The notes beneath the pieces were generated by a model, which was given only the letters and a program-made list of their open reading frames with translations, made no database searches and was not told the DNA's origin. Positions 2,066 to 40,846 of a stretch of 45,910 bases of DNA are shown in pieces. This DNA is from a candidate division WOR-3 bacterium. Its GTDB lineage: Bacteria > Hydrothermota > Tepidihabitantia > SM23-42 > JAOAFX01. A program made the position numbers and the translations under genes. The stretch lies in NCBI GenBank assembly GCA_039802145.1, contig JBDRWA010000001.1, positions 1-45,910 of the forward strand, written 5' to 3'. The first letter of the stretch is position 1. Each line of letters opens with the position of its first letter.

Positions 2066-4498
2066 TTATTGAGATTGCAGAAATAATCTTATCTCCATAT
2101 TTTCAGGATTTATCTCCAGTGCCTTTCTAAATTTCTGTATCAATCCCTGTCTATCCCTTCTGTTTTGATAAATCAGTCCTTCAATAAAATATTGCTGACC
2201 TTGCAGATATCGCTTTAACTTTTCTGAATCTTCTATACCAGATATAATTTTACTAACATCTACTCTGTGTTCAATTATTGAATTTATATTTAACTCCCAG
2301 TTTTTATTTCTCAAACTCAAGGGTGTGAAGAATTCAAGAATTGGCCGGTTATCAGTATTTATCTGTGCTCCAGTGCTGAATCTCTTTATTGCCTCTTTAT
2401 CCAGAAGACAGGAGACGGCAAGGAGATAAGGGTCTTTGAGCATTTCTTCTTTTATATTTTTCAATGACTCAAAATCTATCTTTTGTGTCTGATTTGTTCC
2501 CACTAATATACCGTGAGAATAACCGAGCCAGATTGAAGTATAGGGGAAAACATCTGCAAAGGTTTTTATCAACGATTTAAATTCTTCAGGGCTCAATTTA
2601 TGAAAAGGAAGATATTGACATACCACACCTTTATCAGATAAGTGTTCTTTACATAATAAAAAATATTCCTTTGTGTAGAGATTCCCACTGCCTAATATTG
2701 GATGTGTAGGGTCACAGGAAATAATATCATATTTTTTCTTACTTAATAGGAGAAAATTCCTGCCATCATTTGAGACAAAATTAACGACCGGATTATTGAA
2801 TATATATTTGTTAAAATCACTAAAATATTTTGATGCCTCACGCAAACCCGGGCAAATCTCAACACAATCAATCTCTCTGACATTATATTGAGCGATTGCC
2901 GATGTAGTAATTCCTACTCCAAAGCCAATTACCAGAACTTCTTTTGCATCTGGGTTAAAAATAAAAGGCAGATTACCGAGCATCTTTACTACCTTTAGGG
3001 CATCATATGTCGTTCCAATTACTGCACTGTTATTCACATAACAGGACCTTATGCCAGTGAGTCGTTCTTCACTTACAATTATTGTTCCATCCCTTGTTTC
3101 TTTATAATAAAGAATACGGTCCTGTCTATTTGGTGTGTTATATAATGAAGGCGGCAGGATGAATTTTTGCCTAAAAGCAAAAATTGAAATGGTTATTGTA
3201 ATAAAAATCATTGACATATTTAATATTCTATTCTTCAAATTGATTGTAAAGATCAATCCGAGAAACAAATTGATAAATGCAATAATGACCAATCCCCTAA
3301 TGACTCCAAGATAATGTATTATAAAAAATCCTGCAACCAAGGAGCCTAATGCACTACCCATGGTATTCAAAAAATAGACCCTACCAATTTTATTTCCCAC
3401 TGTGTTAATTTCCTTACTGTATAATGAACATATCAATGGAAAACTTATTCCCATAAATATCGTCGGTATTAAAACCACAACTACAGAAAGTAAGAGTGCA
3501 GGTAAAAAGATTCTGAAAAATGGTATTTCAAGCAGAACCTGGGAGGTAAATAATAATTCAGGAAGCCTGTTCATAAAAAAACAGCCAATCACAATATATA
3601 GCCCTGTCATAATTTGAATCAGTGTAAATATTGCCTTGAGATTGTTTCTATTTGAAATCTTTATAAAGATAAGACTGCCGATAAAAATGCCGGTTAAGAA
3701 AACAACAAGTATTATAGTAAAAGTATAAGTTGAATTTGTAAGGAATATAGAAAGCGCGCGAATCCAAAAAATCTCACAGGCAAGGCTCGCAAAGCCTGTT
3801 AAACCCGCAATCAATGGTAGATAATCTATCAGACTTCTTGTATTTGATTCTTGATGTTTGATATTCTGAGCTTTGGGTTGGGGGGATTCCAGATTGGCCT
3901 GTTTTTGTAAAATCATAAAAAGCCCAATAATTACATTAATAATAATTGCTATGAGCTGTGTTGATGTTAGACCAAGGTTTTTGATAAAAAGGAAACCCGT
4001 AAGCAATGCACCCAGCACCCCGCCAATGGTATTAACTCCGTATAGTACTCCGATGCCTCTTTTGATTTCATTATCCTTTTGTATATAAATCCTGTTCATC
4101 ACCGGGAATGTGCCACCCATTAAGAAAGTGGGAATGAGCAAAAATATAAAAGCAATGAAAAATATAATAAACCATGAACCCTTTTGAGTTAAATGGAGAC
4201 TGTGGATAATGCCTTTATATAAATATTGTAATTCAGGTAAGAAAATAAGGAGAAAGAGAGAAAAAATGGCGAGTCCGAGTTGCAAAAAAGAAAATAATAT
4301 TTTGGGTTTTTTTATTTTATCAACATAAGAGCCGAAATACAATCCACCGATACCGAGTCCCAACATAAATGCAGTTATCACCATTGTGTTTGCTACGGTT
4401 GTGGAGCCAAATGAAAGCATTAGCAACCTTGCCCAGACTACTTCATAAATTAGCGCAGAAAAGCCGGAAAAGAAAAATAGAATTAAATATATTGCCAT
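2066..4498 (-). CDS. Fused polytopic membrane / spermidine-synthase-like (SAM methyltransferase fold) protein with C-terminal TPR-like tail
   Basis: 810 aa. The N-terminal ~450 aa are hydrophobic multi-helix (MAIYLILFFFSGFSALIYEVVWARLL is typical of this family). The central segment VLVIGFGVGITTS...DIISCDPTHP resembles the spermine/spermidine synthase motif. Confidence 0.75.
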   Translation of the reverse strand: MAIYLILFFFSGFSALIYEVVWARLLMLSFGSTTVANTMVITAFMLGLGIGGLYFGSYVDKIKKPKILFSFLQLGLAIFSLFLLIFLPELQYLYKGIIHSLHLTQKGSWFIIFFIAFIFLLIPTFLMGGTFPVMNRIYIQKDNEIKRGIGVLYGVNTIGGVLGALLTGFLFIKNLGLTSTQLIAIIINVIIGLFMILQKQANLESPQPKAQNIKHQESNTRSLIDYLPLIAGLTGFASLACEIFWIRALSIFLTNSTYTFTIILVVFLTGIFIGSLIFIKISNRNNLKAIFTLIQIMTGLYIVIGCFFMNRLPELLFTSQVLLEIPFFRIFLPALLLSVVVVLIPTIFMGISFPLICSLYSKEINTVGNKIGRVYFLNTMGSALGSLVAGFFIIHYLGVIRGLVIIAFINLFLGLIFTINLKNRILNMSMIFITITISIFAFRQKFILPPSLYNTPNRQDRILYYKETRDGTIIVSEERLTGIRSCYVNNSAVIGTTYDALKVVKMLGNLPFIFNPDAKEVLVIGFGVGITTSAIAQYNVREIDCVEICPGLREASKYFSDFNKYIFNNPVVNFVSNDGRNFLLLSKKKYDIISCDPTHPILGSGNLYTKEYFLLCKEHLSDKGVVCQYLPFHKLSPEEFKSLIKTFADVFPYTSIWLGYSHGILVGTNQTQKIDFESLKNIKEEMLKDPYLLAVSCLLDKEAIKRFSTGAQINTDNRPILEFFTPLSLRNKNWELNINSIIEHRVDVSKIISGIEDSEKLKRYLQGQQYFIEGLIYQNRRDRQGLIQKFRKALEINPENMEIRLFLQSQ

Positions 4499-18627: not shown

Positions 18628-18659
18628 TCCCCTGGGGTGCCTGAAGGCACCCCAGGGGA
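18628..18659 (+). terminator. 14-bp GC-rich hairpin after cargo gene (TCCCCTGGGGTGCC-tgaa-GGCACCCCAGGGGA)
   Basis: Perfect stem read directly. The downstream T-tract is weak (TTATACATT). A near-identical copy is at 23594..23623. Confidence 0.6.
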
Positions 18660-18772
18660 TTATACATTGCGCTTAGAAGCAGCTCATTAGATAAATCTGA
18701 AAGGAGATATGGTATTTGGGTTTAGGTTTGGAAATGGAAACTGTCTGTATTTATTTGTTTGGACTGCAAAAC

Positions 18773-18833
18773 AATGTAGGGCAAGGCTTTAGCCTTGCAA
18801 CAAAAATAAGCAAACCTAAAGGTTTGCCCTACA
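18773..18833. repeat. Small nested palindromic element (TGTAGGGCAA...TTGCCCTACA arms enclosing CAAGGCTTTAGCCTTG hairpin)
   Basis: 10-nt inverted arms at 18775..18784 and 18824..18833, with an inner 7-bp hairpin. The first 26 nt recur (25/26) inside a coding region at 31947..31972. Confidence 0.7.
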
Positions 18834-18867
18834 ATGTAATTAACCATAAAACCATCTACCCACCCAA

Positions 18868-21102
18868 CTATCCAACCATCAAGCCATCCAACAATCCCTT
18901 CACTTCTTGTGAATCCGGAATTATCTTCAAGACTTTTTGTAGTATTTTTCGTGCATCATTTTTGTTCCCGTGTTCAAGGCAGCTCTTGGCAAAATTTATC
19001 GCCTCAGTCTCAAGCTGCGTTAAAATCTTAAATCTCATGTCCACTGACCAGTTATCAAAATTCTTCTTAAACGGCTCACCGCGGAATAACTTGAATGCCC
19101 GTAAGTATTCTTTGCGAGCGATACCCCACTCCCCTGCCCGCTCCAGTGCCTTTGCCCGGGCTAAAGTTTGTCCAAATTCCTGATAGTCGGTGGTAAAATA
19201 AATGTTTTGATTGATTAGATAAGATTCCCCGTTCTGTCTTTTTATCTCTAAATAATGGGCAGGAATTTTAAGAGCCCTTTTTATTCGGACTAAACTGTGG
19301 GAGAAAATCCTTGCTGGATTCTTACTTTTTGACCAGAAATTTTCGTAGAGTTCATTTAAATTCAATGATTTTTCTGGTTCATTGATTCTGGTGATAATAA
19401 ACAAAAGTATTGCACTATCCTTTGGCGAAAGATGGAATTTGTGATATCTTTGATTGCGGAAAATGGTTATTTTGCCTAATAAATTTATATGGTAAACATC
19501 GGTTTTTGTATTAAATATCGGCAGGCGCAGAATTGCCTTAGGTAGATAAGTTGGTTTATTCTTTGCAATCCTTTTCTGAACAAAATCGGGGTAGAAGAAT
19601 AGATAACGATAAAAATAAAACAGGATGCCTTTCCTGACGGCAAACTGATATGCCCCCATATAACCCCTGTTTTTTAATACCCAGGCAAGTTTGATTGTAG
19701 ATAATTTGAAAAATTCTTTATTTTGTGGAATTTTTTGCAGGAGGATGTTGGTAATCAACAACTGCCTTTTCATATTTCTTTTTTTCAAAAATTTCTTCAA
19801 GTTAGCCAATAATGACTTTGCTTTTTCTTCCTCCCCAAAACACATATATGCACTTGCCATTGCCAGATAGGCATTGTTGATATCGGTCAGAAGTCCTGCT
19901 CCTTTTGAGGCATTTAGGGCATTCTGTGCTAAGATAAATGCCTCTGATGGTCTACCTTCAATCAAGGCAAAAAGGGACCGGAATCTTGATAACTGGGCAT
20001 CTTTTGCCCAATCATAAATTTCTGCTTCATTTATAAGTTTCAATGCAGTATTTTTATCGCACCTCAATAAATGAACATAAATCGCAAGCAGCGTCTTCAA
20101 CCTTTTCTTTCTTTGCTCGTCAATACCTTCAAGGGATTTGAGAAGCAGTTTTTCTGCAGTATTATAATCTTCAAGGTCTATGAACTGGACCGCAAGGTCA
20201 TAGAGGAATTCATAAAATGGACTTTTGTGTTGTGATACAAGATGATAGCAATGACGGGCAAGACGGAATGCTTCAGTCAATTTTAACATTTGCACCAGGG
20301 TGTGGCATTTTGAAATAAGTAAGGTAAAACGAATTGGCATTAAATCTTTTGCTTTTCTATCATTGTCAGGTAGAGATTTTTCAATTTTTTCTGTCCATCT
20401 CTTTTGTTCTTCAGGATTGCCAAGCCAGGATAATGCAACAAGCAAAGCCATACCAATTCTTAATGCCGAATAATTCCACTCATTCTTGATAGATTTTTTA
20501 TAGAGTATTTTTGCTTTTTTGATATATTCCGACAATGGGATTTTGCCGAATTCCATTGTCAATCTTTCAATCTTGCGCCTTGTATTCAAGAGTTTTTCCG
20601 GTAATTTTAAAACTAATTCATTCTTTGGTAGCGGGGGTAAGGAATTTAAAATTATCGCTGATTCTTTCATTTTGCCATCATTAAATAGCCGCTCTGCATC
20701 TTCTAACTTTAACTTTGTTTCCTGAGAAGGAATAATGAATTCGGTAAAGTCATTGCAAATGTTCAAACGATCAAAGCCAGAATATCCATATCTTTTCCAG
20801 ATATTCCATATTCCACGGCTGGTGATTTTTATTTTCTTCTTGAGCAATACCCTCCGTGTCTGTTCCAGCGTGAGCCAGGGATATTTTTCTTTATACTTTA
20901 TGACGAAATTTTCAATATACTTTGGGGAGCGATTCCAGGGTTTAAAAAGCGGTTGTGTTTTAAATTTTTTAAAATACTTCAACCATTTATAAACCGTCTG
21001 ATAATGGAGATTAAATTTTTTTGCGGTCTTTCTGATTGAAGATTTATTTTTAAAATATTCGTCAATGACCCCATAAAATAATTCTCTTTGTTTGTTATGC
21101 AT
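18868..21102 (-). CDS. Paralogous large regulator: paired HTH, TPR-like, winged-helix + BTAD
   Basis: 744 aa, collinear with 14635..16878. By manual count, 90 of 100 aligned residues are identical across the BTAD region starting at IYFTTDYQEF (ten residues before the C-terminus), and the rest is much more diverged. Confidence 0.7.
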   Translation of the reverse strand: MHNKQRELFYGVIDEYFKNKSSIRKTAKKFNLHYQTVYKWLKYFKKFKTQPLFKPWNRSPKYIENFVIKYKEKYPWLTLEQTRRVLLKKKIKITSRGIWNIWKRYGYSGFDRLNICNDFTEFIIPSQETKLKLEDAERLFNDGKMKESAIILNSLPPLPKNELVLKLPEKLLNTRRKIERLTMEFGKIPLSEYIKKAKILYKKSIKNEWNYSALRIGMALLVALSWLGNPEEQKRWTEKIEKSLPDNDRKAKDLMPIRFTLLISKCHTLVQMLKLTEAFRLARHCYHLVSQHKSPFYEFLYDLAVQFIDLEDYNTAEKLLLKSLEGIDEQRKKRLKTLLAIYVHLLRCDKNTALKLINEAEIYDWAKDAQLSRFRSLFALIEGRPSEAFILAQNALNASKGAGLLTDINNAYLAMASAYMCFGEEEKAKSLLANLKKFLKKRNMKRQLLITNILLQKIPQNKEFFKLSTIKLAWVLKNRGYMGAYQFAVRKGILFYFYRYLFFYPDFVQKRIAKNKPTYLPKAILRLPIFNTKTDVYHINLLGKITIFRNQRYHKFHLSPKDSAILLFIITRINEPEKSLNLNELYENFWSKSKNPARIFSHSLVRIKRALKIPAHYLEIKRQNGESYLINQNIYFTTDYQEFGQTLARAKALERAGEWGIARKEYLRAFKLFRGEPFKKNFDNWSVDMRFKILTQLETEAINFAKSCLEHGNKNDARKILQKVLKIIPDSQEVKGLLDGLMVG

Positions 21103-21248: not shown

Positions 21249-23573
21249 ATGAAAATTGGAATTTGGTTTGGTATGTTCTTAATCGTTTCTTTTGTTCATT
21301 CAGCTAACCTCCCCTGGACCTGGCAGAATCCATTACCTGAAGGTAATGAATACACTGATGTCTGTGTAATCAACGAAAATATTATTTTTGTTGTTGAAGA
21401 AGAGGCAGGAACCATTTTAAAGACGACAAATGGTGGCTTGGCCTGGGATGTAAGTTTCACACCTTATCCTGATTCCCAGCCTGGTTATTATGAACTTTAT
21501 GGTATTGATTTTCCTGATTCGCTAACTGGCTATGCAGTCGGTAATTTCTGGGGTTCAAACTGGAATACAACATATCATGCTGTAATTTTAAAAACCACAA
21601 ACCAGGGTGCAACCTGGACATTCCAGTATCTTGGCGCACAGAATACCTGGCTTATGGATGTTGATTTTCCGCAGGGAAATAATCAGGTCGGATATGCAGT
21701 AGGGAGAAATGGAATGATATTAAAAACGACAAATGGTGGGCAGAGTTGGGTTCAGCAAAATTCTGGCACAACCTATGAATTGCTTGCAGTACATTTTCCC
21801 GTTGATGCAAATACTGGATATGTTGTTGGTGGGAATAGAACTACAACCCCGGTAATCTTAAAAACAACAAACGGTGGTTCCAACTGGAATAGCCAGACAA
21901 GTCCAGCAAATGTGACTTACTGGGATGTGTGTTTTATTGATAATCAGAACGGTTATGCAGGGGGGTATACATTAGGTAGTGGTGGCAATGGTACAATTAT
22001 TAAAACAACCAATGGAGGTAGTACGTGGCAACAGATATGGTATCAACAATACCGTGAAATTTATTCAGTACATTTTTTGAATGCCCAGGTCGGGTATGCC
22101 GGTGGTTGGGCACACTCAAATTCGGGCTGGAGTGGAAGTTTCATTATGAAAACAACAAACGAAGGTAGTAGCTGGACTCCAGTCTTTCTTCCGAAATTTA
22201 TGACCTATGTTTTACCGATTGGTTTTGCCAATACACTGACTGGTTATGCTGCAGGATATGTCTATGACCAGAATGGTGGCCATGGCCAACTTTTGAAAAC
22301 TACGGATGCGGGCACATCCTGGATTTTCTTAAATACAGGTCCTGAAGGAATTTTTTGGGCTGTTGATTTTCCGGAGAGCGACCAAATTGGTTATGCGGTT
22401 GGCGATGCAGGATATATATACAAGACAACTGATGGAGGTGCAACCTGGGTACAGCAAACAACAGGAACCGGGCAGGTATTCTATGATGTTGATTTTCTTG
22501 ATAATCAACTCGGTTTTGCAGTTGGTGCTAATGGAACATTTTTCAAGACAACAAACGGTGGTAATGTCTGGACTCCAAAAAATGCAAATACTACAGCCAC
22601 CCTGTATGCAGTGAAATTCATAAATTCGCAAATTGGTTACATTGCTGGACTGGGAAGTACTGGTGGAGTGATAATGAAGTCTACGGATGGAGGTGATAAC
22701 TGGATAAGTCAGACCATCCCTAACAATAATACTTATCGGGCAATTCAGGATTTATTTTTCTTTAATGCGGATACTGGTTATGCAGTTGCGGGTGCCACAC
22801 CTTCTTATGGTGGTGCAGTTGGACTTGTATATAAAACCACTAATGGTGGTCAGACCTGGGTTGAAAACTATGCACCATCTTCAGCAAATTTCTATGCCAT
22901 AGATTTTCCAGAAAATTCACAGGTTGGTTATATTTCAGGTTTAATGGGAGGTACCGGGACTTATAAAATGATAAAGACAACCAATGGGGGCAATTCCTGG
23001 ACAGGACAAAGCCTGGGGGGTGGTATTGTTCCCGCTGTTGGTGTATCCTTTGCAGATAATCTCATTGGTTATGCGGTATTCAGACCTGGTGGATACCATA
23101 TGATGATGAAGACAACGAATGGTGGTTCAAACTGGTTTGCTATCAATTCTCTGACCTGGCACGGTTATGAGGATATCCAGGCGATCAATGCAAATGTCGT
23201 TTATGCAGTTGGCAGGGGCGGAATGATCCGCAAGACAACAAATGGTGGAAGCGTTTGGATTGAGGAAGAAAAAGGTGATGGAGATATAAAGGTGGATAAT
23301 CATTATCAAAGTTTGTGGGTCTATCCTAATCCATTCAGGAACAATGTCCATATCAGATGCAGGATGCATGATACAGGATACATGATAAAGATATACGATG
23401 TTTCGGGACGTGTTGTAAAATCTTTCAATCTTGAATCCTGTATCCTGAATCATGAATCCAGTATCACCTGGTTCGGCGATGATAAGCTGGGACGTGAATT
23501 GCCTGCAGGTGTTTATTTTATCGTGCCTGAGGATAAAAGTTCGTCGCCCGTGCGGGTGGTGAAGATAAGATAA
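21249..23573 (+). CDS. Secreted BNR/Ycf48-like double beta-propeller protein with T9SS C-terminal sorting domain
   Basis: I prefer the start at ATG 21249 (AAGGGGG SD, then signal-like MKIGIWFGMFLIVSFVHSA) over the track start 21180. There are 14 repeats of the (I/L)xKTTNGGxxW motif. Tail NPFRNN...IKIYDVSGR...LPAGVYFIV...VVKIR. Confidence 0.85.
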   Translation: MKIGIWFGMFLIVSFVHSANLPWTWQNPLPEGNEYTDVCVINENIIFVVEEEAGTILKTTNGGLAWDVSFTPYPDSQPGYYELYGIDFPDSLTGYAVGNFWGSNWNTTYHAVILKTTNQGATWTFQYLGAQNTWLMDVDFPQGNNQVGYAVGRNGMILKTTNGGQSWVQQNSGTTYELLAVHFPVDANTGYVVGGNRTTTPVILKTTNGGSNWNSQTSPANVTYWDVCFIDNQNGYAGGYTLGSGGNGTIIKTTNGGSTWQQIWYQQYREIYSVHFLNAQVGYAGGWAHSNSGWSGSFIMKTTNEGSSWTPVFLPKFMTYVLPIGFANTLTGYAAGYVYDQNGGHGQLLKTTDAGTSWIFLNTGPEGIFWAVDFPESDQIGYAVGDAGYIYKTTDGGATWVQQTTGTGQVFYDVDFLDNQLGFAVGANGTFFKTTNGGNVWTPKNANTTATLYAVKFINSQIGYIAGLGSTGGVIMKSTDGGDNWISQTIPNNNTYRAIQDLFFFNADTGYAVAGATPSYGGAVGLVYKTTNGGQTWVENYAPSSANFYAIDFPENSQVGYISGLMGGTGTYKMIKTTNGGNSWTGQSLGGGIVPAVGVSFADNLIGYAVFRPGGYHMMMKTTNGGSNWFAINSLTWHGYEDIQAINANVVYAVGRGGMIRKTTNGGSVWIEEEKGDGDIKVDNHYQSLWVYPNPFRNNVHIRCRMHDTGYMIKIYDVSGRVVKSFNLESCILNHESSITWFGDDKLGRELPAGVYFIVPEDKSSSPVRVVKIR
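23354..23394 (+). repeat. In-frame 7-nt-phased array in T9SS tail, loop 1 (CAGGATG/CATGATA/CAGGATA/CATGATA/AAGATAT)
   Basis: Units read directly; they encode RCRMHDTGYMIKI just before the IYDVSGR strand. Confidence 0.75.
23432..23466 (+). repeat. In-frame 7-nt tandem array in T9SS tail, loop 2 (TGAATCC/TGTATCC/TGAATCA/TGAATCC/AGTATCA)
   Basis: Five contiguous heptamers read directly; they encode LESCILNHESSI. Confidence 0.8.
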
Positions 23574-23593: not shown

Positions 23594-23623
23594 CCCCTGG
23601 GGTGCCTGTGGGCACCCCAGGGG
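23594..23623 (+). terminator. 13-bp GC-rich hairpin after cargo gene (CCCCTGGGGTGCC-tgtg-GGCACCCCAGGGG)
   Basis: Perfect stem. The stem sequence is identical to the hairpin at 18628..18659. It is followed by an A-run rather than a T-run. Confidence 0.55.
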
Positions 23624-23779: not shown

Positions 23780-23807
23780 TTGACAAAGCAAAAATAATTA
23801 ATATAAT
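23780..23807 (+). promoter_or_regulatory. Consensus sigma70 promoter (TTGACA-16-TATAAT) for the giant S8 peptidase gene
   Basis: -35 at 23780..23785, -10 at 23802..23807. A roughly 90-nt leader follows, with two GGAGG sites. Confidence 0.7.
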
Positions 23808-28114: not shown

Positions 28115-29320
28115 ATGAAATCAATAAGTAAGATTTGCTTGTTTTATAAAGGCAGGTCAAATTTTTTAAAAGAATTTTTTTACCTTTTTAATAAGGGTGG
28201 GATAAAATCTACTATTTCTTGTCTGCGACTATTCAAGACCGCATTAAATAACGAAAAGATAAATAAATTTAACGATAAAGCAGTCCTTTTCTTTCTCATT
28301 CCACCTATCCCGTCAGAGAGTTTTAGACGCCATTTAAGGCATTATTCAAACAAATTTATTTTGCGAAACGGAAATAGTTTCTTTGGACAGGCATTCATCG
28401 CGGTCAATCGCAAATGTCCGTTCAATTGCTGGTATTGTAGTGCAGGCAACACGCAGGATAATGAATTGAGTTTAGAAGAACTGGATGGAGTTATTTCGCT
28501 GTTTAAAGACTGGGGTGCAAGCACAATTGTCTTTACCGGTGGTGAACCACTTTTGAGGGATGATATAGATATTTTGATCTCAAAATATCATGAAGATCTG
28601 TCATTTGTTATATTGACTTCTGGTTATGGATTGAGTGTAAAAAGGGCAAAAAGACTGAAAGATAACGGTTTGTTTTCAATTTCTATCAGCCTCGATCACT
28701 TTGACCCTAAAATCAATGACCGGTCAAGGGGTAGGGAAGGGGCATTTGACATTGCCCTTGATGCCATAAAGAATGCCAAGAGTGCTGGATTGTATACAGT
28801 CGTCCAGACCGTAGCAACAAGCGAATTGTTAAGGGATGGAGAGACAGAAAGATTCATAGACTTTGTAAAAAATTTAGATGTTGATGAATTATTCCTCCTT
28901 GAACCGCTCTGCACTGGAAGATTGTTTAGTAAAGAAAGAGATATTTATTTGAATGGCGAAGAGGCAGAAAAATTGAAATTATTACATATCCAATCAGCGA
29001 AAAAGAAAAACGGTTTGAAGATTATTACATCCCCATTCATTGAAGATACTACAAAATTTGGCTGTGGTGCTGGTACCCAGCATATCTATGTTGATACGAG
29101 TGGCGATCTCTGGCCCTGCAATTTTCTCCCTGTATCATTGGGGAATCTCTTAAGAGAACCTGAGGCTGTGAAGATAAGACTTAAGAAATATTTCAGTAAA
29201 CCATGTGGTTTCTGTATTCTAAAGAAGTACCACAAAGAATTATTAAAGTATTATGATAATGGATTACCTATAAAGTTTGAATGCATAGAAAAGATATTAG
29301 AAAAGATGGATAAATCCTGA
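28115..29320 (+). CDS. Radical SAM enzyme with C-terminal SPASM/twitch-like Cys cluster
   Basis: 401 aa with CPFNCWYC (CxxxCxxC) after a ~95-aa N-terminal extension. GGEPLL motif. The C-terminus GCGAGTQHIYVDTSGDLWPCNF...PCGFC resembles a partial SPASM domain. Confidence 0.8.
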   Translation: MKSISKICLFYKGRSNFLKEFFYLFNKGGIKSTISCLRLFKTALNNEKINKFNDKAVLFFLIPPIPSESFRRHLRHYSNKFILRNGNSFFGQAFIAVNRKCPFNCWYCSAGNTQDNELSLEELDGVISLFKDWGASTIVFTGGEPLLRDDIDILISKYHEDLSFVILTSGYGLSVKRAKRLKDNGLFSISISLDHFDPKINDRSRGREGAFDIALDAIKNAKSAGLYTVVQTVATSELLRDGETERFIDFVKNLDVDELFLLEPLCTGRLFSKERDIYLNGEEAEKLKLLHIQSAKKKNGLKIITSPFIEDTTKFGCGAGTQHIYVDTSGDLWPCNFLPVSLGNLLREPEAVKIRLKKYFSKPCGFCILKKYHKELLKYYDNGLPIKFECIEKILEKMDKS

Positions 29321-29348: not shown

Positions 29349-32156
29349 ATGATGGTAGGTAGTGCATTAATCTTAGTCTTTACGCTGCTACCACAGATTC
29401 CAGGTAAGTTGACCCCGGAACTTTTAGAAATACTTAATCGCTCTTCACCCGGTGAAAAAATCTTTGTCATTGTCCATATGAGTACTGAATACCCATATGC
29501 TGAGATTGAAAACTTGCATCCTCAGGAAAAATGTAAAATCTTTGAGCAGGTTGCCAGAAATTCCCAGAAGGATATTATCAATTATCTTAAAAGATTGCCC
29601 GTAGAAAAGGCAGAAGTCCTTAAGCAGTTCTGGATTTTTAATGGCTTCCATCTGAAGGCAACGAAGCATATAATCTATGAACTCGCCAAACGTGATGATA
29701 TCTGGTTTATCTGCCATAACGGAATAATAAAACTTGATGATGAGGTTTTGTCAGAATCGGATATTACAGGGCGTACGCCAGGGTGGAATATTATAAAGAT
29801 AAAAACGGATTCCTGCTGGCTTGCTGGATATAGCGGTGCAGGTGTTATTGTTGGACACATTGATACAGGAGTTATGATAGACCACCCTGCCCTTGAAGGG
29901 AAATGGTTATTACCTTACTGGTATGATGCGGTGAATTTTTACCCTAGACCGTATGATGATCATGGACATGGCACTTTTACAATGGGCACTCTATGCGGTG
30001 GTGATGGCTTTGGACCATTCGGTGAAGATGTCGGTGTTGCCTTTGGTGTAAAATATATTGCAACCAAGGCATTTGATTCTCATGGCTCTGGACAATATGC
30101 TTGGATAGATGCCTGTATGCAGTATCTTGCAGATTTGAAGGCACAGGGTGTGAACATTTGTATAATAAATAATTCATGGGGATCTGCCAATGGCTCGGAT
30201 TTACACTGGTGGAATCTCATTCTCACCTGGAAAAATTTAGAAATCTTTGCCGTTTTTGGCACAGGAAGTAGCGGTCCTGGTTCAGGGACGGTTGTTTCAC
30301 CGGCAAGTTATCCCCTTGTCGCCGGAATCGGTGCCACCGATTCCAGTGATAACATAACGAGTTTCTCTTCCCGTGGTCCAGCACCGAACATCTCACCGAT
30401 AAATGACCCTCAATACTGGTTTTACCCGACCTGGAATTTGTTAAAACCAGATTTCTCAGCCCCCGGGCAAAATATTCGTTCATGCTACAATAATGGTGGT
30501 TATGCTAATTCCACAGGGTCAGGAATAACCACGCCCCATGTTGCTGGTGGTGCGGCGATTTTGTTAGAAAAAAATCCGGAACTTACGGTTAATGATATCT
30601 ATGATTTTTTCCGAATTTACTGTGACCAGCCTCCGCAGGGCGCACCGTATCCAAACAATAATTATGGTTGGGGCAGGGTTAATCTCTGGCGCTCTTTACA
30701 AAACATTCCGCCTTTGAATATGCCCAACATTGTTCTCGCCAATGCTTCAGTCGTTAATGACAACAATAGCAATGGTAAACTTGACCCTGGTGAAGATGCA
30801 GGAATTGTTTGTTATTTGAAAAACAGCGGGGGCGTGCAGGCGAGTAATGTCCAGGCAATTTTAAGGACAACATCTAATTATGTTATAATTTACGATTCAA
30901 CATATTTTTATGGCACAATCAGTTCCGGAGATACGGTTGAAAATACATCAGAACCATTTGTGTTAAGTGTATTAGATTCAACACCGCCAGGGCACATTTC
31001 AATTTTCCAATTAACAATCACCTCTGCCGAGACAACTTGGACAAGAAGTTTTTATAAAACGGTCGGTATCGCTCCAGGAACGATTATCTGGGGTCCTAAG
31101 ACACTGCCCAATTTTCCTACAAGCGGAATTGTCTATGGTATTTCCTATGATGCAGCGGATGATAAAATATATGTAGTAGACTTTAATTCACCTCAGATCT
31201 ATTGTTACTCATCGGATAGTTTTGTTACTTACTATGGGACAATTCCTGCGCCAGAAGATAGTCTCACTGACATCACCTATAGCCCTTATGATGATGCATT
31301 GTATGTGATTGGGCTCAATCCTAAAATTGTGTGGAAGATTGATAAGACGACTGGTGCAATACTCCGTCAATTTGATAATCCGGCAATTGACTATCCTGTC
31401 GGTATAGTTTTAAAACCGCATGATACACTATGGTTTGCGGATCGAAGGACTGCTCTTGGTACACCCCAGTTGCTTTATATTGGTGATACATTAGGAAATG
31501 CCAATCAATATAATAACCCGGTCCAGGGATATTACAACTCGCGGTGCCTCGCCTATGACGCGATTGGTAATTCATTTATTCAAGCCCATACATGGTATGA
31601 TTCTCATGGAAACAATTTGGATAGTGCTGGTGTTGTTGAAATAAAAGGTGAACCACCCATGTTGACATCAAATCTTATGCTGTTAAATCCAGCTTGGCAT
31701 ATAAGGGGTGTAGAATTTGACCCGCGGGATGGCAATTACTGGGTTACCATTGCCCAGGTTGGTGGCAGTTTTCCTGTAAGATGGATTGTAAAAGTGAGGG
31801 GTTTTTATACACCGACAACCGCGATTAAAGAAAGAAAAGTCTTCCAGACACAAAAAGGACTTTTAAATATTGTGCCGAATCCATTCCAGAATCACTGCGT
31901 TATTAAATTTCAAATTCCAAGCACCAAATCCCATAATCCAAACGGAAATGTAGGGCAAGGCTTCAGCCTTGCGATATACGATGTAACCGGTAGAATGGTT
32001 AGAGATTTTTCTTGGCTGACGGTAAACGGTGAACGGTCAACGGTTTTCTGGGATGGTTGTGATGATTCTGGTCGCAATTTGCCTGCAGGTGTTTATTTTG
32101 TTAGGTTAGATGTGGATGATTTCAAAAAAGTGGAAAAGGTTATATTTTTAAGATGA
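29349..32156 (+). CDS. S8-like paralogue with substituted nucleophile (probable pseudo-peptidase), NHL/beta-propeller-like region and T9SS C-terminal sorting domain
   Basis: 935 aa, collinear with the 23906 gene through the S8 domain with no gaps around the active site. Asp (GHIDTGV) and His (DDHGHGTFTMG) are kept, but GTSMASPHV is replaced by GSGITTPHV and the oxyanion GNSG by GSSG. Tail PNPFQNH...IYDVTGRMV...LPAGVYFVRL...VIFLR. The gene starts 28 nt after the radical SAM gene. Confidence 0.85.
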   Translation: MMVGSALILVFTLLPQIPGKLTPELLEILNRSSPGEKIFVIVHMSTEYPYAEIENLHPQEKCKIFEQVARNSQKDIINYLKRLPVEKAEVLKQFWIFNGFHLKATKHIIYELAKRDDIWFICHNGIIKLDDEVLSESDITGRTPGWNIIKIKTDSCWLAGYSGAGVIVGHIDTGVMIDHPALEGKWLLPYWYDAVNFYPRPYDDHGHGTFTMGTLCGGDGFGPFGEDVGVAFGVKYIATKAFDSHGSGQYAWIDACMQYLADLKAQGVNICIINNSWGSANGSDLHWWNLILTWKNLEIFAVFGTGSSGPGSGTVVSPASYPLVAGIGATDSSDNITSFSSRGPAPNISPINDPQYWFYPTWNLLKPDFSAPGQNIRSCYNNGGYANSTGSGITTPHVAGGAAILLEKNPELTVNDIYDFFRIYCDQPPQGAPYPNNNYGWGRVNLWRSLQNIPPLNMPNIVLANASVVNDNNSNGKLDPGEDAGIVCYLKNSGGVQASNVQAILRTTSNYVIIYDSTYFYGTISSGDTVENTSEPFVLSVLDSTPPGHISIFQLTITSAETTWTRSFYKTVGIAPGTIIWGPKTLPNFPTSGIVYGISYDAADDKIYVVDFNSPQIYCYSSDSFVTYYGTIPAPEDSLTDITYSPYDDALYVIGLNPKIVWKIDKTTGAILRQFDNPAIDYPVGIVLKPHDTLWFADRRTALGTPQLLYIGDTLGNANQYNNPVQGYYNSRCLAYDAIGNSFIQAHTWYDSHGNNLDSAGVVEIKGEPPMLTSNLMLLNPAWHIRGVEFDPRDGNYWVTIAQVGGSFPVRWIVKVRGFYTPTTAIKERKVFQTQKGLLNIVPNPFQNHCVIKFQIPSTKSHNPNGNVGQGFSLAIYDVTGRMVRDFSWLTVNGERSTVFWDGCDDSGRNLPAGVYFVRLDVDDFKKVEKVIFLR
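31905..31939 (+). repeat. In-frame 7-nt tandem array in T9SS tail, loop 1 (AAATTTC/AAATTCC/AAGCACC/AAATCCC/ATAATCC)
   Basis: Units read directly; they encode KFQIPSTKSHNP. The unit family resembles the arrays at 32335..32383. Confidence 0.75.
31947..31972 (+). repeat. Coding copy of the 26-nt palindromic element (AATGTAGGGCAAGGCTTCAGCCTTGC)
   Basis: 25/26 identical to intergenic 18773..18798. Translated in frame as NVGQGFSLA. Confidence 0.8.
32019..32046 (+). repeat. In-frame 7-nt tandem array in T9SS tail, loop 2 (ACGGTAA/ACGGTGA/ACGGTCA/ACGGTTT)
   Basis: Four contiguous heptamers. The first three differ only at position 6, and position 6 runs A, G, C, T across all four. They encode LTVNGERSTV. 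Confidence 0.85.
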
Positions 32157-32276: not shown

Positions 32277-32304
32277 TTGACTTCTCTGGTATCAGTGATA
32301 TAAT
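32277..32304 (+). promoter_or_regulatory. Consensus-like sigma70 promoter (TTGACT-16-TATAAT) in the relic region
   Basis: -35 at 32277..32282, -10 at 32299..32304. Followed by GGAGG (32310..32314) and an ATG at 32320. Confidence 0.5.
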
Positions 32305-32334
32305 CAATTGGAGGCAGAAATGAGAATTGCAAAT

Positions 32335-32383
32335 AAATTCGAAATCCGAAGCACGAAATTCGAAACAAATTCTAAATTCCAAA
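32335..32383 (+). repeat. 7-nt tandem array (AAATTCG/AAATCCG/AAGCACG/AAATTCG/AAACAAA/TTCTAAA/TTCCAAA)
   Basis: Read directly. Confidence 0.75.
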
Positions 32384-32409
32384 CCGCTACGCAGCACGGC
32401 GGACCAAAC

Positions 32410-32479
32410 AAATCCGCATTTCGCAATCCGAAATTCAAAATGCCTTTTTCCCGTTCCGCAATTCGCAAAACGAAATTTC
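32410..32479 (+). repeat. 7-nt tandem array (AAATCCG/CATTTCG/CAATCCG/AAATTCA/AAATGCC/.../CAATTCG/CAAAACG/AAATTTC)
   Basis: About ten units with conserved ..A..CG phase, read directly. Confidence 0.7.
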
Positions 32480-32517
32480 ATTAAAGATTTATGATGTTGC
32501 GGGTCGGGTAATGAAAT

Positions 32518-32549
32518 CATTTAACCATTTAACCAATTTTTCATTTAAC
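32518..32549 (+). repeat. 8-nt tandem array in orphan tail, loop 2 (CATTTAAC/CATTTAAC/CAATTTTT/CATTTAAC)
   Basis: Read directly; it encodes HLTNFSFN at the same loop as the heptamer arrays in the intact paralogues. Confidence 0.75.
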
Positions 32550-32670
32550 CAGATTGTTTGGGACGCTTTTGATGATTCCGGTCGTAAACTTCCTGCAGGT
32601 GTTTATTTTGTGCGGCTGGAGACGGGTGAATTCAGTATGGTGAAGAAGGTGATATTTTTAAGATAGGGGA

Positions 32671-32720
32671 TGAAGAAGGGTGAATAAGGGTGAAGAGGGG
32701 TAAAAAGGGGTTGGACAGGG
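32671..32720 (+). repeat. Five tandem decamers ending in G-runs (TGAAGAAGGG/TGAATAAGGG/TGAAGAGGGG/TAAAAAGGGG/TTGGACAGGG)
   Basis: Read directly. G3-4 runs are spaced 10 nt apart, with one more GGGG at 32666..32669. Confidence 0.85.
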
Positions 32721-38500: not shown

Positions 38501-38655
38501 ACTCTTTAAAAAATGTTGTAGTAAAGAAAGATGTGCGTGGTTTTAAATCACATCCTTTAAGCATATTAAGGTTAAAATACACGCAGAAAATTATGGAAGT
38601 AGCAAATAATGAAATTTTATCAGAAATGATTGCTTCTCAGTGTATTACCGTTTAG
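35509..38655 (+). CDS. Signal-less fusion protein: N-terminal chemoreceptor (MCP signalling tip)-like helical domain + long helical linker + C-terminal family-5 solute-binding domain
   Basis: 1048 aa. Residues 122-154, LAENIEVKAYQAKDEGKGLAIIAREAFKIARSS, align to the MCP hairpin-tip consensus [33 protein letters not shown]. From about residue 555 onward the protein looks like a peptide/nickel-type SBP5 (...GPFKILNWERGKEIILEANNFYFEGRP...GWISDTGDPDNFLYPLFH...). No N-terminal hydrophobic segment and no TM helices seen. Confidence 0.6.
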   Translation: MASIKEYLKETNNLNKRVEIITEFLNNSILELNELITLLESIFDSLRRANNLINFLKNYALSFKTQIAKFSNDLVEVEKKITFYQNYLVEIEQLIRETKEITNNIEENAHSFIKFTRMISYLAENIEVKAYQAKDEGKGLAIIAREAFKIARSSQLLFQHFDDLLDIIRKNVEPFSTEIDNTIKDAEVSLNSLINLLTSLKAVSDLLESLQNFIHAIETGSEIFSEIETKINVQVDGINKQLTASLNTVDEISLRGSEIYNLSQILYELYSVVSSPRYGRENPYLLEQFKYLIDENIRILKKINIGVRPTLLSSELVNDLNYITKQINTLYEIIVKGKGEVENLGIIMDKVSVIRLDVNQIFSTQGIIVEKIKDFKNILGDQLLIIESLTQVGSKIIDKLKTLSIFSRLEQSHSVEYKDLITPIIDEFRNLSNGINLSFSALEDGVSNLRKILNKLGVLVIKKEVVQLNLPDFSRIKIFYDDVVRVFENCFSNIKSLRNFIGRLDKANFLLHQHWIVYEEALREILNFSVLLQKFVPQKFPAPSISKTRSILKINLFNDPVTLKPDLKTDATSQQVIVNYSAGLFQFGFGTAVILGLCDDYSISEDGRIYTFHIRDNLKYSNGRKLQIGDIKAGILKGLSGPNHNLLEMIFGAKDFLNSRDPYSLWVKEIDQHRIQVKLDYPYLPFLANFATNVADPYIDEDPPVGMGPFKILNWERGKEIILEANNFYFEGRPQIDILKFIITVDEDYGYELFKSGELSIYQPGQKSLRKIKQEFPELLIMTPELSVQFLCFHCQKSPFNNKLVRKAIYYGINVEKLVSDLLSDIAIPAKGIFPPSLPMYNRKLVGYKYDPHRSVELLSQAGFQGGLPDIYPLTVSDTPMSIKRAEFIKSNLNEIGIKIEINPLPWHEFLEKCYQGNFLLCLQGWISDTGDPDNFLYPLFHTNSFGYAGNTFFFSNNEIDKMIENARQIRNIRQRYNYYQLIEEKILDEAPGVFLFHSLKNVVVKKDVRGFKSHPLSILRLKYTQKIMEVANNEILSEMIASQCITV

Positions 38656-38665
38656 AGGGGGTAAT

Positions 38666-40846
38666 ATGGCAAAAAAGGAAGATATTGATATCCTTGCTGA
38701 CTTAGAGGAAAAACTCGGTCAGCTTGAGAAAGTTGAAAAAGATTTGGCAGCAAAAACCAAGGAATTAAAATCCGCTGAAGAAAAACTTGCCGAAACGTAT
38801 TCTACACAGATGGAGTTGACTAGTGAAGTTGAGGAATTAAAAAAGACAATTCAGGATTTGAAGAGAGAGGAAAAGGCACTGCGAGAGGCTCTGAAGACTG
38901 CTGAAAAAGACAGCCAGAAATTAGGGACACTCCAGCGTGAGGTCGGAGAACTTGCTTCAGAAAAGGATAAATTTGAAACGAAGATAAAAGAATTAAAGTC
39001 AGAATGTGATAAATTAAATAATGAGCGTAATAAGCTTGAAGAAACCATTGAAAAGTTGAAAACACGGCAAGAAGAATTGACTGCGAAGTGTGGAGAGATT
39101 GAATCAAGATATGCTGAATTGGAGAATGCATACCATAATCAAGAAAAATCTCACAATGAGATTAAATTGAGAACAGAGGAGTTGAAGAATGAATATCAAA
39201 GTGTTGAGCAGACCTTAAGGGCTGCGCTTTCTGACTTGAGGGCGACGGAGAAAGATCTGAAAATAATGAATGAAGAGCGTAATGCCTTGAATAAGGAATT
39301 AGGCGCTTTGAAGAAAAATTTAGAAAAAGATGAGGCACGCCATCAAAAGATATTAAGCGAAGTGCAATCATTAACCGAGGAAAAAAATAGATTACATAAA
39401 ACAATTGAAGAATTTAAGAGTGAAGAAAAGGAGTTGGCCGAGCGTTTGGAAGAAATAAGAAAAACATTTGAAGTTGAGAGTGATGAGCTGGGGAAATTAC
39501 AGAAAGAAGTGGCAGAATTACAAGATATGAGAGAAAAATTATACAAAGAGAATGAAGAACTTGCAAATTTGAAAAAAGAGCATGATGCACTCGTTCAGAA
39601 AATTTCAGAATTAAAAAAGGAAGAAGGAGAACTTGTATCCAATATTTCTAATTACCAATTAGAATATAGCACACTTGAAGCGTCATTCAACGAACTGGAT
39701 AAAAAATATAAAAAAGAAGAAAAAGAAGAAAGCGAATTGCAGAAAAATATTGAAAAGATGAAAAAAGAACAGGAAGAATTACATAAGATTGTTGATAAAT
39801 TACGCAAGGAGCAAAAAGAACTTGATCCAATTGTTGCAGAACTCAAGGAAAAAGAGAAAGAATTGCGAAAGATTGAGCCTGAATATAAAAAGACAAAGGA
39901 AGAACATACTCGTCTTAAGGAAGAGGCACAGGAGTTAGGTAAGTCTATTGAACTTGCCAAAAAACGGATTGAGGAACTTGAGCCCCAGGTTGCCAAATAT
40001 GAAGAAATGGACAAGGAGTACAAAAAGAAAAAAGAGGAACTTGAAAAGGTTGAAGCACAATTGCACAAGAGTGAAGACAAGATAAAACATATTGAAGAAG
40101 AGTATGAAAGGATAACAGCTGAATTGCCCAAATTGCGTGATGAATATGAGGAATTGCAACTGGCAATTGAAGAGAATGAAAAGATTAAACAGTTATTGGA
40201 GACGAGAAAGAAAGAACTGGCAATGGTTGAGGATAAGATTACAGACCAGCGTAAGGAACTCTCCACACTTAATGATAAACTTGAGATTTTAAAGAAAGAA
40301 GAGGCAAAGGCTGTAGAAGATTTAAACAAAGAAACAAAAGAATTATTGAGGGAAAGGGATAAGTATAAGGATGAAATTGAGAAGCTGTCAGGGCATAGAA
40401 AAGAGATGGAGGACAAAATTAATGATTTAAAAATTCTCCTTTCGGAAACCGAAGGGAAGATTGAAAAAGCAAGGGCAGTTGAGGCGAATATGATTGCGAA
40501 AATTGAAAAAAGGCGTGAAGAACTGGTGAAGATTAATGATGAAATAGAGCAGAGCAAGATGAAGATTAAGAAGGAATGCGAGGAGGAGTTGAAAAGAGCA
40601 GAATTAGCAAGAGAAGAGATTAAAGAACTTGAGACCAAGAAAAAGGAAGCAGCGATAATTATTGCCAAGGCTGAGGAATTTAAAAAGTCAATTGTTAAAT
40701 TAAAGGAGGAAAAAGACGAACTTGAGAAAACGATTGCTGAAAAGACAAAAGAATTGGAAAAGATTAAAATATTTATCGCCCGACTCAAGGAGGCACAACC
40801 CACCAAATCTAAAGAAGGGGATAAAAAACAGGACATTTCCTTTTGA
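38666..40846 (+). CDS. 726-aa all-coiled-coil, K/E-rich protein (cytoskeletal/scaffold-like, no globular or NTPase domain seen)
   Basis: I prefer the start at ATG 38666 (GAGGGGG SD) over the track start 38630, which overlaps the upstream gene. Heptad-like charged sequence is continuous from end to end. No Walker motif, TM segment or signal peptide. Confidence 0.75.
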   Translation: MAKKEDIDILADLEEKLGQLEKVEKDLAAKTKELKSAEEKLAETYSTQMELTSEVEELKKTIQDLKREEKALREALKTAEKDSQKLGTLQREVGELASEKDKFETKIKELKSECDKLNNERNKLEETIEKLKTRQEELTAKCGEIESRYAELENAYHNQEKSHNEIKLRTEELKNEYQSVEQTLRAALSDLRATEKDLKIMNEERNALNKELGALKKNLEKDEARHQKILSEVQSLTEEKNRLHKTIEEFKSEEKELAERLEEIRKTFEVESDELGKLQKEVAELQDMREKLYKENEELANLKKEHDALVQKISELKKEEGELVSNISNYQLEYSTLEASFNELDKKYKKEEKEESELQKNIEKMKKEQEELHKIVDKLRKEQKELDPIVAELKEKEKELRKIEPEYKKTKEEHTRLKEEAQELGKSIELAKKRIEELEPQVAKYEEMDKEYKKKKEELEKVEAQLHKSEDKIKHIEEEYERITAELPKLRDEYEELQLAIEENEKIKQLLETRKKELAMVEDKITDQRKELSTLNDKLEILKKEEAKAVEDLNKETKELLRERDKYKDEIEKLSGHRKEMEDKINDLKILLSETEGKIEKARAVEANMIAKIEKRREELVKINDEIEQSKMKIKKECEEELKRAELAREEIKELETKKKEAAIIIAKAEEFKKSIVKLKEEKDELEKTIAEKTKELEKIKIFIARLKEAQPTKSKEGDKKQDISF

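Follow-up and report, generated by a model that had tools for sequence, protein, structure and literature searches.

How does the coding sequence of a secretion signal come to be written in repeats of seven nucleotides, and could such repeats switch the signal on and off? The question is raised by a gene in a stretch of 45,910 nucleotides of contig JBDRWA010000001.1 (assembly GCA_039802145.1) from a hot-spring bacterium of candidate division WOR-3; the whole stretch is called the window below. The gene, at 21249..23573, encodes a cargo protein with a C-terminal sorting domain (CTD) for secretion through the type IX system (T9SS). A sequence-only reading had described two heptanucleotide arrays near the 3' end of this gene as in-frame inserts in two loops of the CTD. 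It had proposed that gain or loss of a unit could act as a switch for secretion or anchoring or, alternatively, that the arrays are fossil expansions tolerated in surface loops. According to the present analysis, the arrays are probably fixed in-frame products of slippage and inverted copying, located in a WOR-3-type CTD subfamily that evolves by exchange of modules or cassettes and in which the arrays act as breakpoints.

The two arrays and the domain that they encode

The cargo gene product of 774 amino acids (counted from the ATG at 21249) was assigned to PSII_BNR of Pfam (9.5e-34), and a protein 99% identical to it is annotated from a metagenome-assembled genome (MAG) of candidate division WOR-3. 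The N-terminus MKIGIWFGMFLIVSFVHSA was recognized by eye as a putative signal peptide. The CTD is located at the extreme C-terminus and ends at the stop codon. It scored 27.6 bits with Por_Secre_tail (PF18962; cutoff 27) and 29.8 bits with TIGR04183 (curated cutoff 23).

Both arrays were present as described. The units CAGGATG/CATGATA/CAGGATA/CATGATA/AAGATAT of array 1 were located at 23360-23394, with a 6-nt partial unit ahead from 23354, and the units TGAATCC/TGTATCC/TGAATCA/TGAATCC/AGTATCA of array 2 at 23432-23466. The encoded peptides RCRMHDTGYMIKI and LESCILNHESSI stand before IYDVSGR and before W.GDD, respectively. Periodicity was checked with Tandem Repeats Finder (TRF) and with a lag-7 score, defined as the number of matches at lag 7 in 28-nt windows, with at least 22/28 counted as strong. 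TRF reported period 7 with 4.6 copies and 84% matches at 23356-23387 (also period 14, score 50), and period 7 with 4.7 copies, 80% matches and a score of 45 at 23427-23459. Only two sites in the whole window reached 22/28 at lag 7, and these were arrays 1 and 2. None of 2000 codon shuffles of the gene reached this value, the shuffle maximum being 20. The tail of the S8 peptidase gene that had been cited as free of such repeats gave 13/28. The periodicity is therefore above background at both arrays, real and non-random. The units are degenerate (80-84% matches): each differs from its neighbours.

The description of the arrays as inserts was not borne out. The CTD of the cargo gene and the array-free S8 CTD differ by one residue in length, and the distance from NPF to IYD is 24 residues in the former versus 25 in the latter. 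An AlphaFold2 model of the 90-residue tail (predicted local distance difference test score, pLDDT, 81.8) showed a beta-sandwich fold with seven strands at residues 2-9, 16-22, 28-32, 38-43, 52-57, 70-76 and 84-88. The top Foldseek matches of this model were 5m11 (PorZ CTD), 6za2 (PorU CTD) and 8glk_D (NucA CTD in a T9SS complex). In the model, the segment R19-I29 encoded by array 1 covers the last part of a strand, the HDTG turn and the first part of the following strand. Array 2 encodes N43-I55, which runs from the end of one strand through a short helix or loop into the beginning of another. The placement in two loops was thus half right: a turn and a loop are indeed covered, together with the adjoining strand ends. 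As judged from the model, the arrays encode regular parts of the CTD beta-sandwich, namely the first beta-hairpin and the segment that leads into the W.GDD strand. No target-site duplication was seen at the arrays. Matches to CAGGATACATGATA with up to two mismatches were found only at the array locus within the window, and matches with three mismatches elsewhere were at chance level. Tails related to the tail of the 21249 gene were found only as CTDs.

For comparison with relatives, module A was defined as the region from NPF to IYD (first hairpin) and module B as the region preceding the tryptophan; related loci are cited by number. A tail search with one genome per species yielded 45 loci. 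The close ones all belonged to WOR-3 or unclassified relatives; 10 of these close loci came from a single MAG, and several were located at contig ends. In a metagenome scan, the closest relatives were only 56% identical, so that the scan was of little use for tails of the present array type (type 1). A word-indexed search with the 83-residue tail gave only 9 matches, mostly fragments, and an exhaustive HMMER search was used instead; it returned 3,427 relatives at E≤1e-3, of which 100 had E≤1e-10. Among 64 WOR-3-like tails, the mean maximum at lag 7 was 18.5/28, compared with 12-14 for lags 3-12, and 34% of the tails reached 22. The mean maximum at lag 7 was 12.6 in 45 tails of other phyla (Bacteroidota, Cloacimonadota and others), none of which reached 22. 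Period-7 arrays mark WOR-3-type CTDs, and the same arrays were found in at least 10 independent MAGs.

Three main array types were distinguished in module A: GATACAG (encoding IR[CY]xIxDTGY..), AAATCCG (EIRNPKSEI) and CAAATCC (FQIPNPKSQ..), the last with up to about 10 units. The AAATCCG and CAAATCC types share the orientation and the approximate sequence of array 2 (GAATCCT). The GATACAG type is their reverse complement, so that one unit family occurs in both orientations, direct and inverted. Conservation of module B (LESxIxNxESxIxW) extends widely among the HMMER relatives. The modal length of module A was 29 residues among about 133 of these, and variants of 36 residues (29+7) carried near-perfect IQDTRYM repeats. 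As these two lengths and the comparison of L047 with L046 and L050 show, in-frame steps of three units happened repeatedly.

Table 1. Coordinates of the cargo gene, its arrays and related features in the window
Feature	Coordinates	Strand	Basis and remarks
Cargo gene; beta-propeller protein of YCF48/BNR type, C-terminal domain for T9SS type A sorting (CTD)	21249..23573	+	Pfam
CTD coding region, YPNPF...VRVVKIR	23322..23570	+	TIGR04183; AlphaFold2 beta-sandwich; Foldseek
Array 1, degenerate heptamers GATGCAG/GATGCAT/GATACAG/GATACAT/GAT..	23356..23387	+	TRF; lag-7 22/28; 5' arm of inverted repeat
Spacer between the arrays, encodes KIYDVSGRVVKSF (conserved IYDxxGR strand)	23388..23426	+	Ordinary synonymous variation among relatives
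Array 2, degenerate heptamers AATCTTG/AATCCTG/TATCCTG/AATCATG/AATCCAG/TATCA	23427..23466	+	TRF; lag-7 23/28; 3' arm of inverted repeat
GC-rich hairpin	23594..23623	+	20 nt past the stop codon of the 21249 gene; no U-tract
Independent heptamer array ACGGTAA/ACGGTGA/ACGGTCA/ACGGTTT	32019..32044	+	TRF period 7, 3.7 copies, 89% matches
Cargo-less, frame-broken orphan CTD	32320..32666	+	TRF; three-frame translation; Por_Secre_tail 27.9 bits; comparison with L081

Complementarity of the arrays

Array 1 is the reverse complement of array 2, a relation that the sequence-only reading did not contain. The arms of the inverted repeat (23356-23386 and 23435-23465) are 31 nt long, 84% complementary and separated by 48 nt; an alternative 3' arm is located one unit away, at 23428-23458. 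This is the longest and top-ranking local inverted repeat of the window. Its ungapped score was 18.5, about 10 standard deviations (SD) above the background of 6.07±1.20 that was obtained with 6,538 segment pairs of equal spacing in the window, and the second-best score elsewhere in the window was 12.5. Folded as RNA, the 136-nt array region gave -40.5 kcal/mol (z=-3.2), and -11.5 at 70 °C. The duplex of modules A and B had an energy of -41.4 kcal/mol in the native sequence versus -18.1±4.6 kcal/mol after synonymous resampling with the codon usage of the window. Since 0/500 resampled sequences were as low as the native one, the amino-acid sequence does not account for the pairing.

Among related tails, pairing of a GATACAG-type module A with module B ranged from -28 to -44 kcal/mol; the other types of module A mostly gave -11 to -27 kcal/mol and in one case -30. 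Many sister tails that combine the same module B with an AAATCCG or CAAATCC module A are unpaired (about -11 to -18 kcal/mol) and appear intact. The relation between modules A and B was also found in the diverged variants L007, L046-L050 and L003. In the alignment of nine type-1 tails of the same length, no compensatory changes were detected among the 39 stem pairs, and the covariation term was +0.53. The mismatches showed no preference of G·U over A·C (14 versus 11) and hence no sign of selection on the sense RNA. A scan of the array hairpin against Rfam gave only chance matches (E>0.2). The observation that variable columns fall at unpaired positions was discarded as circular, the structure having been derived from the same sequences.

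Two further candidates were rejected. An invertible DNA switch between the arms would have a spacer of only 41-48 bp, and inversion would destroy the IYDxxGR motif; one register (I2) would keep a long antisense open reading frame (ORF) in frame, but this antisense ORF has no family match. An integron attC-like site was discarded by inspection only, as no GTTRRRY core was seen at the arm ends.

Constancy, replacement and loss of tails

As had been pointed out, gain or loss of a unit would shift the frame, the period of 7 not being a multiple of 3 and the arrays being located inside the ORF. The number of units was nevertheless identical in nine sequenced DNA tails and about 12 further protein relatives with this array type, at cargo identities of 47-99%. 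A constant unit number among relatives whose cargo identity falls to 47% speaks against an on/off switch at the 21249 locus, and the units are too degenerate for efficient slippage. We regard such a switch as quite improbable at this locus. For the wider family, and for its purer arrays, it is still conceivable in view of the one-unit loss in L016 and of the longer first-array region in near-identical strains (both described below). Two suspected frameshifts among type-1 tails, P0122 and P0350, turned out to be contig starts inside array 1 and were dismissed. Contigs starting or ending inside these tails were also noted for L006, L014, L010, L016, L078 and L082.

The tails varied in other ways. 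In comparison with L001, the tail was 89-97% identical, the gene body 47-84% by 75-nt block (73% overall at the nucleotide level) and the sequence past the stop codon 41%. In the closer orthologues L002 and L006, the tails were conserved no better than the body. L005 and L006 come from one MAG; their sequences agree completely from the second codon of IYD, and they differ in module A. In the strains L079 and L080, the gene body is 97-100% and the downstream DNA 95-97% identical to the window, and the CTD is replaced from 23341 to the stop codon. The replacing CTD has a module A of the CAAATCC type that is longer by 63 nt (9 units), and the rest of it is only 80-86% identical. The longer first-array region of L079 and L080 thus arose by replacement of a cassette, not by slippage of units. 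The second S8 gene has the same kind of allele in a relative of 96% identity. The array-free S8 tail served as an internal control; in nine strain-level relatives it showed point substitutions only and no indel.

A clean loss of frame was found in a pair of paralogous tails of another array type than that of the window. L016 equals L005 minus exactly one 7-nt unit within a stretch of 75/76 identical positions; its cargo frame ends with ...IRNPQFH*, and the CTD continues in another frame. L017, which is 14 nt (two units) short, was first taken as a second clean frameshift and then downgraded, as its cargo frame is also broken at an A8 run and the locus looks like a pseudogene or a poor assembly.

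The independent heptamer array of Table 1 occupies the array-2 position in the CTD of the second S8 peptidase gene (29349..32156, called S8b) and translates to LTVNGERSTVFW. Downstream of this gene, the orphan CTD carries heptamer arrays (32335-32383) as well as an array of 8-mers (32518-32551). Its own promoter (-10 box), ribosome-binding site and ATG (32277-32326) are 94% identical to those of a different gene in strain L081, which encodes a secreted BNR-like protein whose N-terminus MKKFSGDSAIRNPKSAMPF is heptamer-encoded; the repeat family is thus not confined to CTDs. A heptamer-encoded SAIRNPKSA was noted at 5946-6010 of L081; it precedes the hydrophobic core of the signal peptide in the N-terminus of a secreted protein. 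The fusion junctions of the orphan CTD lie in AATCCGC-type arrays, and the DNA past its stop matches the DNA past the S8b stop in L081. A second CTD without cargo was found in L083, an unrelated metagenome contig, where its GATACAG arrays have non-coding surroundings. The loss of one unit in L016 and the array junctions of the orphan CTD mark the arrays as sites of indels and rearrangements. Just past the orphan CTD stop, at 32671-32709, a purine-rich 10-mer/20-mer array (TGAAGAAGGG, four copies) was observed, and a related stretch follows the S8b stop in L081.

Several other features were recorded in the neighbourhood. The post-stop hairpin of Table 1 belongs to a GC-rich type, CCCCTGGGGTGCC-n-GGCACCCCAGGGG, that follows both ...(A/V)RVVKIR* tails of the window (18630-18658 and 23594-23623). 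It is kept at 95-97% identity in the strain with the replaced CTD; it was rejected as an intrinsic terminator, as a consensus scan does not call one and a U-tract is lacking. A palindrome resembling repetitive extragenic palindromic (REP) sequences, GTAGGGCAAGGCTTTAGCCTTGC, was located at 18771-18837 and 31950-31972 of the window, at 1573-1592 in L048 and L049, and at 3512-3531 and 8804-8823 in L074. It occurs in intergenic DNA by the 3' end of the gene of an HTH/TPR regulator and also in frame in module A of a CTD, where it is translated as VGQGFSLA. The tail of the P0003 orthologue in L015 (3150-3200) carries a 45-nt palindromic in-frame insertion (TCCGCCAATCATCCGCCA..TGGCGGATGGCGGA) at the position of module B. 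At 18842-18897, an 8-mer array with seven copies of AACCATCC (also period 24) overlaps the 3' end of the gene of an HTH_28+TPR regulator (18868..21102, minus strand). This regulator of about 745 residues and a T9SS cargo gene (BNR or S8) form a divergent pair, with the gene at 21249..23573 as the cargo partner in this case, that recurs several times per genome and was also found in L074 (three copies), L075, L076, L077 and L079. A perfect sigma-70 consensus promoter (TTGACA-16-TATAAT) is located at 23780-23807 upstream of the gene of a 1354-residue S8 peptidase. Between the two S8 peptidase genes, a radical SAM/SPASM gene (28115..29320) was found, in the same order as in L081; this may represent a peptide-maturase context. 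The only strong lag-9 site of the window is an A/G-rich repeat of 41 nt (and 9 nt) at 39702-39780, within the gene at 38630..40846.

Origin of the arrays and relation to known systems

In the explanation that we prefer, modules A and B would have been built by repeat processes at the DNA level in a subfamily of T9SS sorting domains of WOR-3 and its relatives. Both arrays consist of degenerate copies from one unit family, approximately RAATCCK (sense), present directly in array 2 and as reverse complement in array 1, so that a 31-nt quasi-palindrome surrounds the spacer coding for IYDVSGR. The tandem units would stem from replication slippage and the reverse-complement array from inverted template-switch copying. 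At present, the main mode of tail evolution would be exchange, in which entire modules or CTDs pass from one paralogous tail or strain to another and the breakpoints fall at the arrays or inside them. The arrays of the window gene would then be a fixed in-frame allele that is kept by selection for a working sorting signal and not an active switch. Of the earlier proposals, the one of tolerated fossil expansions comes close to this conclusion, except that the arrays add no length and are not inserts in surface loops. Quasi-palindromes are known hotspots of template switching, in which the polymerase copies one arm from the other and the repeat becomes more perfect (PMC7202029); such copying allows complementarity without selection. 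Slippage and template switching as the origin, and recombination behind the mosaic pattern, are what we infer from the pattern of the sequences. Three observations stand against the preferred explanation. Synonymous variation affects 3/14 codons in arm 1 compared with 9/12 in the spacer (p=0.016), the hairpin is conserved across all nine type-1 tails, and L047 carries CGTG (CCTG in the window) in array 2 together with CACG (CAGG in the window) in array 1. These could equally mean selection for nucleic-acid structure.

It is accordingly conceivable that the arrays form a stem-loop of about 110 nt, as mRNA or as single-stranded DNA, and that this structure is under selection; it could serve as an element for RNase III or for stability, as a translational pause before folding of the CTD, as a thermosensor or as a recombination signal for CTD exchange. 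The fold energies at both temperatures, a complementarity far above what the protein sequence requires, the stem shared by nine relatives with its arm 1 poor in synonymous change, and the maintenance of the relation between modules A and B in diverged variants, with L047 changed on both arms, are consistent with this. The lack of compensatory pair changes, the lack of a G·U bias and of an Rfam match, and the many unpaired sister tails with the same module B that appear intact argue against it. L048 and L049 have an array 2 of the L047 type without a matching array 1, and the low synonymous variation of arm 1 is equally explained by a recent recombinational spread of the module. With this mixed evidence, a function of the hairpin is unproven, and we consider it rather unlikely.

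A contingency locus, at which slipped-strand mispairing adds or removes 7-nt units and so puts the CTD out of or into frame, toggling secretion or anchoring of the cargo, would agree with a unit length that is not a multiple of 3 within an ORF, with the difference of exactly one unit between L016 and L005 that leaves the CTD out of frame, with the two units missing in L017, and with the existence of in-frame variants with three additional units in the family. But adjacent units are never identical, which should make slippage rare; the unit number is constant down to 47% cargo identity; the sole length variant at the 21249 gene is a replacement of the whole cassette; and L017 looks like a pseudogene or a poor assembly, P0122 and P0350 being mere contig ends. 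Very improbable, in our judgement, is an in-frame miniature mobile palindromic element, similar to a Rickettsia palindromic element (RPE) or a miniature inverted-repeat transposable element (MITE), that was inserted in the CTD and tolerated. The inverted-repeat architecture fits such an element, the REP-like GTAGGGCAAGGCTTYAGCCTTGC occurs both between genes (18776) and in frame (31950), L015 carries its palindromic in-frame insertion, and in-frame insertions of RPEs are documented (PMC10969869). However, no length is added relative to array-free CTDs, neither a target-site duplication nor a copy outside CTD tails was seen in the window, and the segment between the arms is the most conserved motif of the CTD (IYDxxGR) and not element-internal sequence. 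An artefact of chance or codon usage can be given almost no credit: the TRF scores are low in absolute terms (36-50, with 36 low-score rows in the window), but the codon shuffles, the presence of only two such sites in 46 kb, the score of the inverted repeat about 10 SD above background and the recurrence of the arrays in at least 10 independent MAGs all stand against it. A farther-reaching reading, which we hold to be unlikely, takes the direct and inverted arrays as working parts of a lineage-specific re-addressing of secretion that combines toggling of the frame by one unit with ectopic exchange of sorting-domain cassettes. If it were true, orphan CTDs would be silent donors, the quasi-palindrome (23356-23466) would serve as a signal for recombination or stalling instead of being a fossil, and the set of cargo proteins with a functional T9SS signal would keep changing in WOR-3 populations.

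As a rule, the sorting domains of the T9SS are regarded as conserved protein domains of an ordinary kind, and in WOR-3 and its relatives two segments of them are written in 7-nt repeats. Near-identical cargo genes with different tails, the one-unit frame loss in a paralogue and the cargo-less tails nearby show tails that behave as exchangeable cassettes. The locus thereby offers a concrete, testable case in which repeat dynamics at the DNA level shape a secretion signal. In practice, the tails act as assembly-breaking repeats in metagenomes, and they give rise to spurious small "hypothetical protein" calls of 63-73 residues (P0122 and P0350) and to low-complexity peptides such as IRNPKSE and IQDTGYM in databases.

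No literature linking heptanucleotide repeats with the T9SS was found, and the case is not a member of the contingency loci, of quasi-palindrome switching, of in-frame palindromic elements or of C-terminal displacement with orphans, although it resembles each of them. Examples of simple-sequence contingency loci are the opa genes of Neisseria, with CTCTT repeats in the region of the signal peptide, and hmw of H. influenzae, with repeats of 7 bp. The present arrays share with them a short unit that is not a multiple of 3 within an ORF and, in L016, a frameshift by loss of one unit. In contrast, the units are degenerate here, their number is constant at the 21249 locus, and the arrays are 3'-terminal, so that a loss would remove the sorting signal without preventing synthesis. 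The heptanucleotide tandem repeats of cyanobacteria (short tandemly repeated repetitive sequences, STRR) are mainly intergenic, and the literature search on them yielded fingerprinting uses only. They are likewise lineage-specific families of tandem 7-nt units dispersed at many loci, but their units are different, whereas the present ones are translated and linked with termini that relate to secretion, namely CTDs and, in L081, the N-terminus of gene X.

In Rhs and CdiA toxins, C-terminal cassettes are displaced and leave orphans downstream, and pilE/pilS undergo gene conversion. As in these systems, only the C-terminal module is replaced between strains, with a body that is 97-100% identical, and orphan modules are located beside full genes. 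The module swapped here is a secretion signal and not a toxin or antigen. With the quasi-palindromes that undergo template-switch mutagenesis in E. coli (PMC7202029), the locus shares imperfect inverted arms of about 30 nt set apart by a short spacer, and the process would explain the complementarity without selection; there, it is described as a source of clustered point mutations in reporter genes, whereas here a conserved coding feature would owe its origin and maintenance to it. RPEs (PMC10969869) are translated palindromic repeats that are tolerated in surface-exposed parts of proteins, and REP-like pieces are present in frame in sister tails, but the arrays show neither an insertion footprint nor added length, and their arms are tandem heptamers and not unique element sequence.

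In protein terms, the domain belongs to the T9SS type A CTDs (TIGR04183/PF18962), which have been solved for P. gingivalis RgpB, PorZ and PorU. The C-terminal position and the motifs NPF...IYDxxGR...W.G.D...GVYF...K agree, the profile scores are above the cutoffs, and the predicted Ig-like beta-sandwich is nearest to the CTDs of PorZ and PorU. Unlike the tails of other phyla, which are without lag-7 signal, those of the WOR-3 lineage have two heptamer-encoded segments, one of which is the reverse complement of the other.

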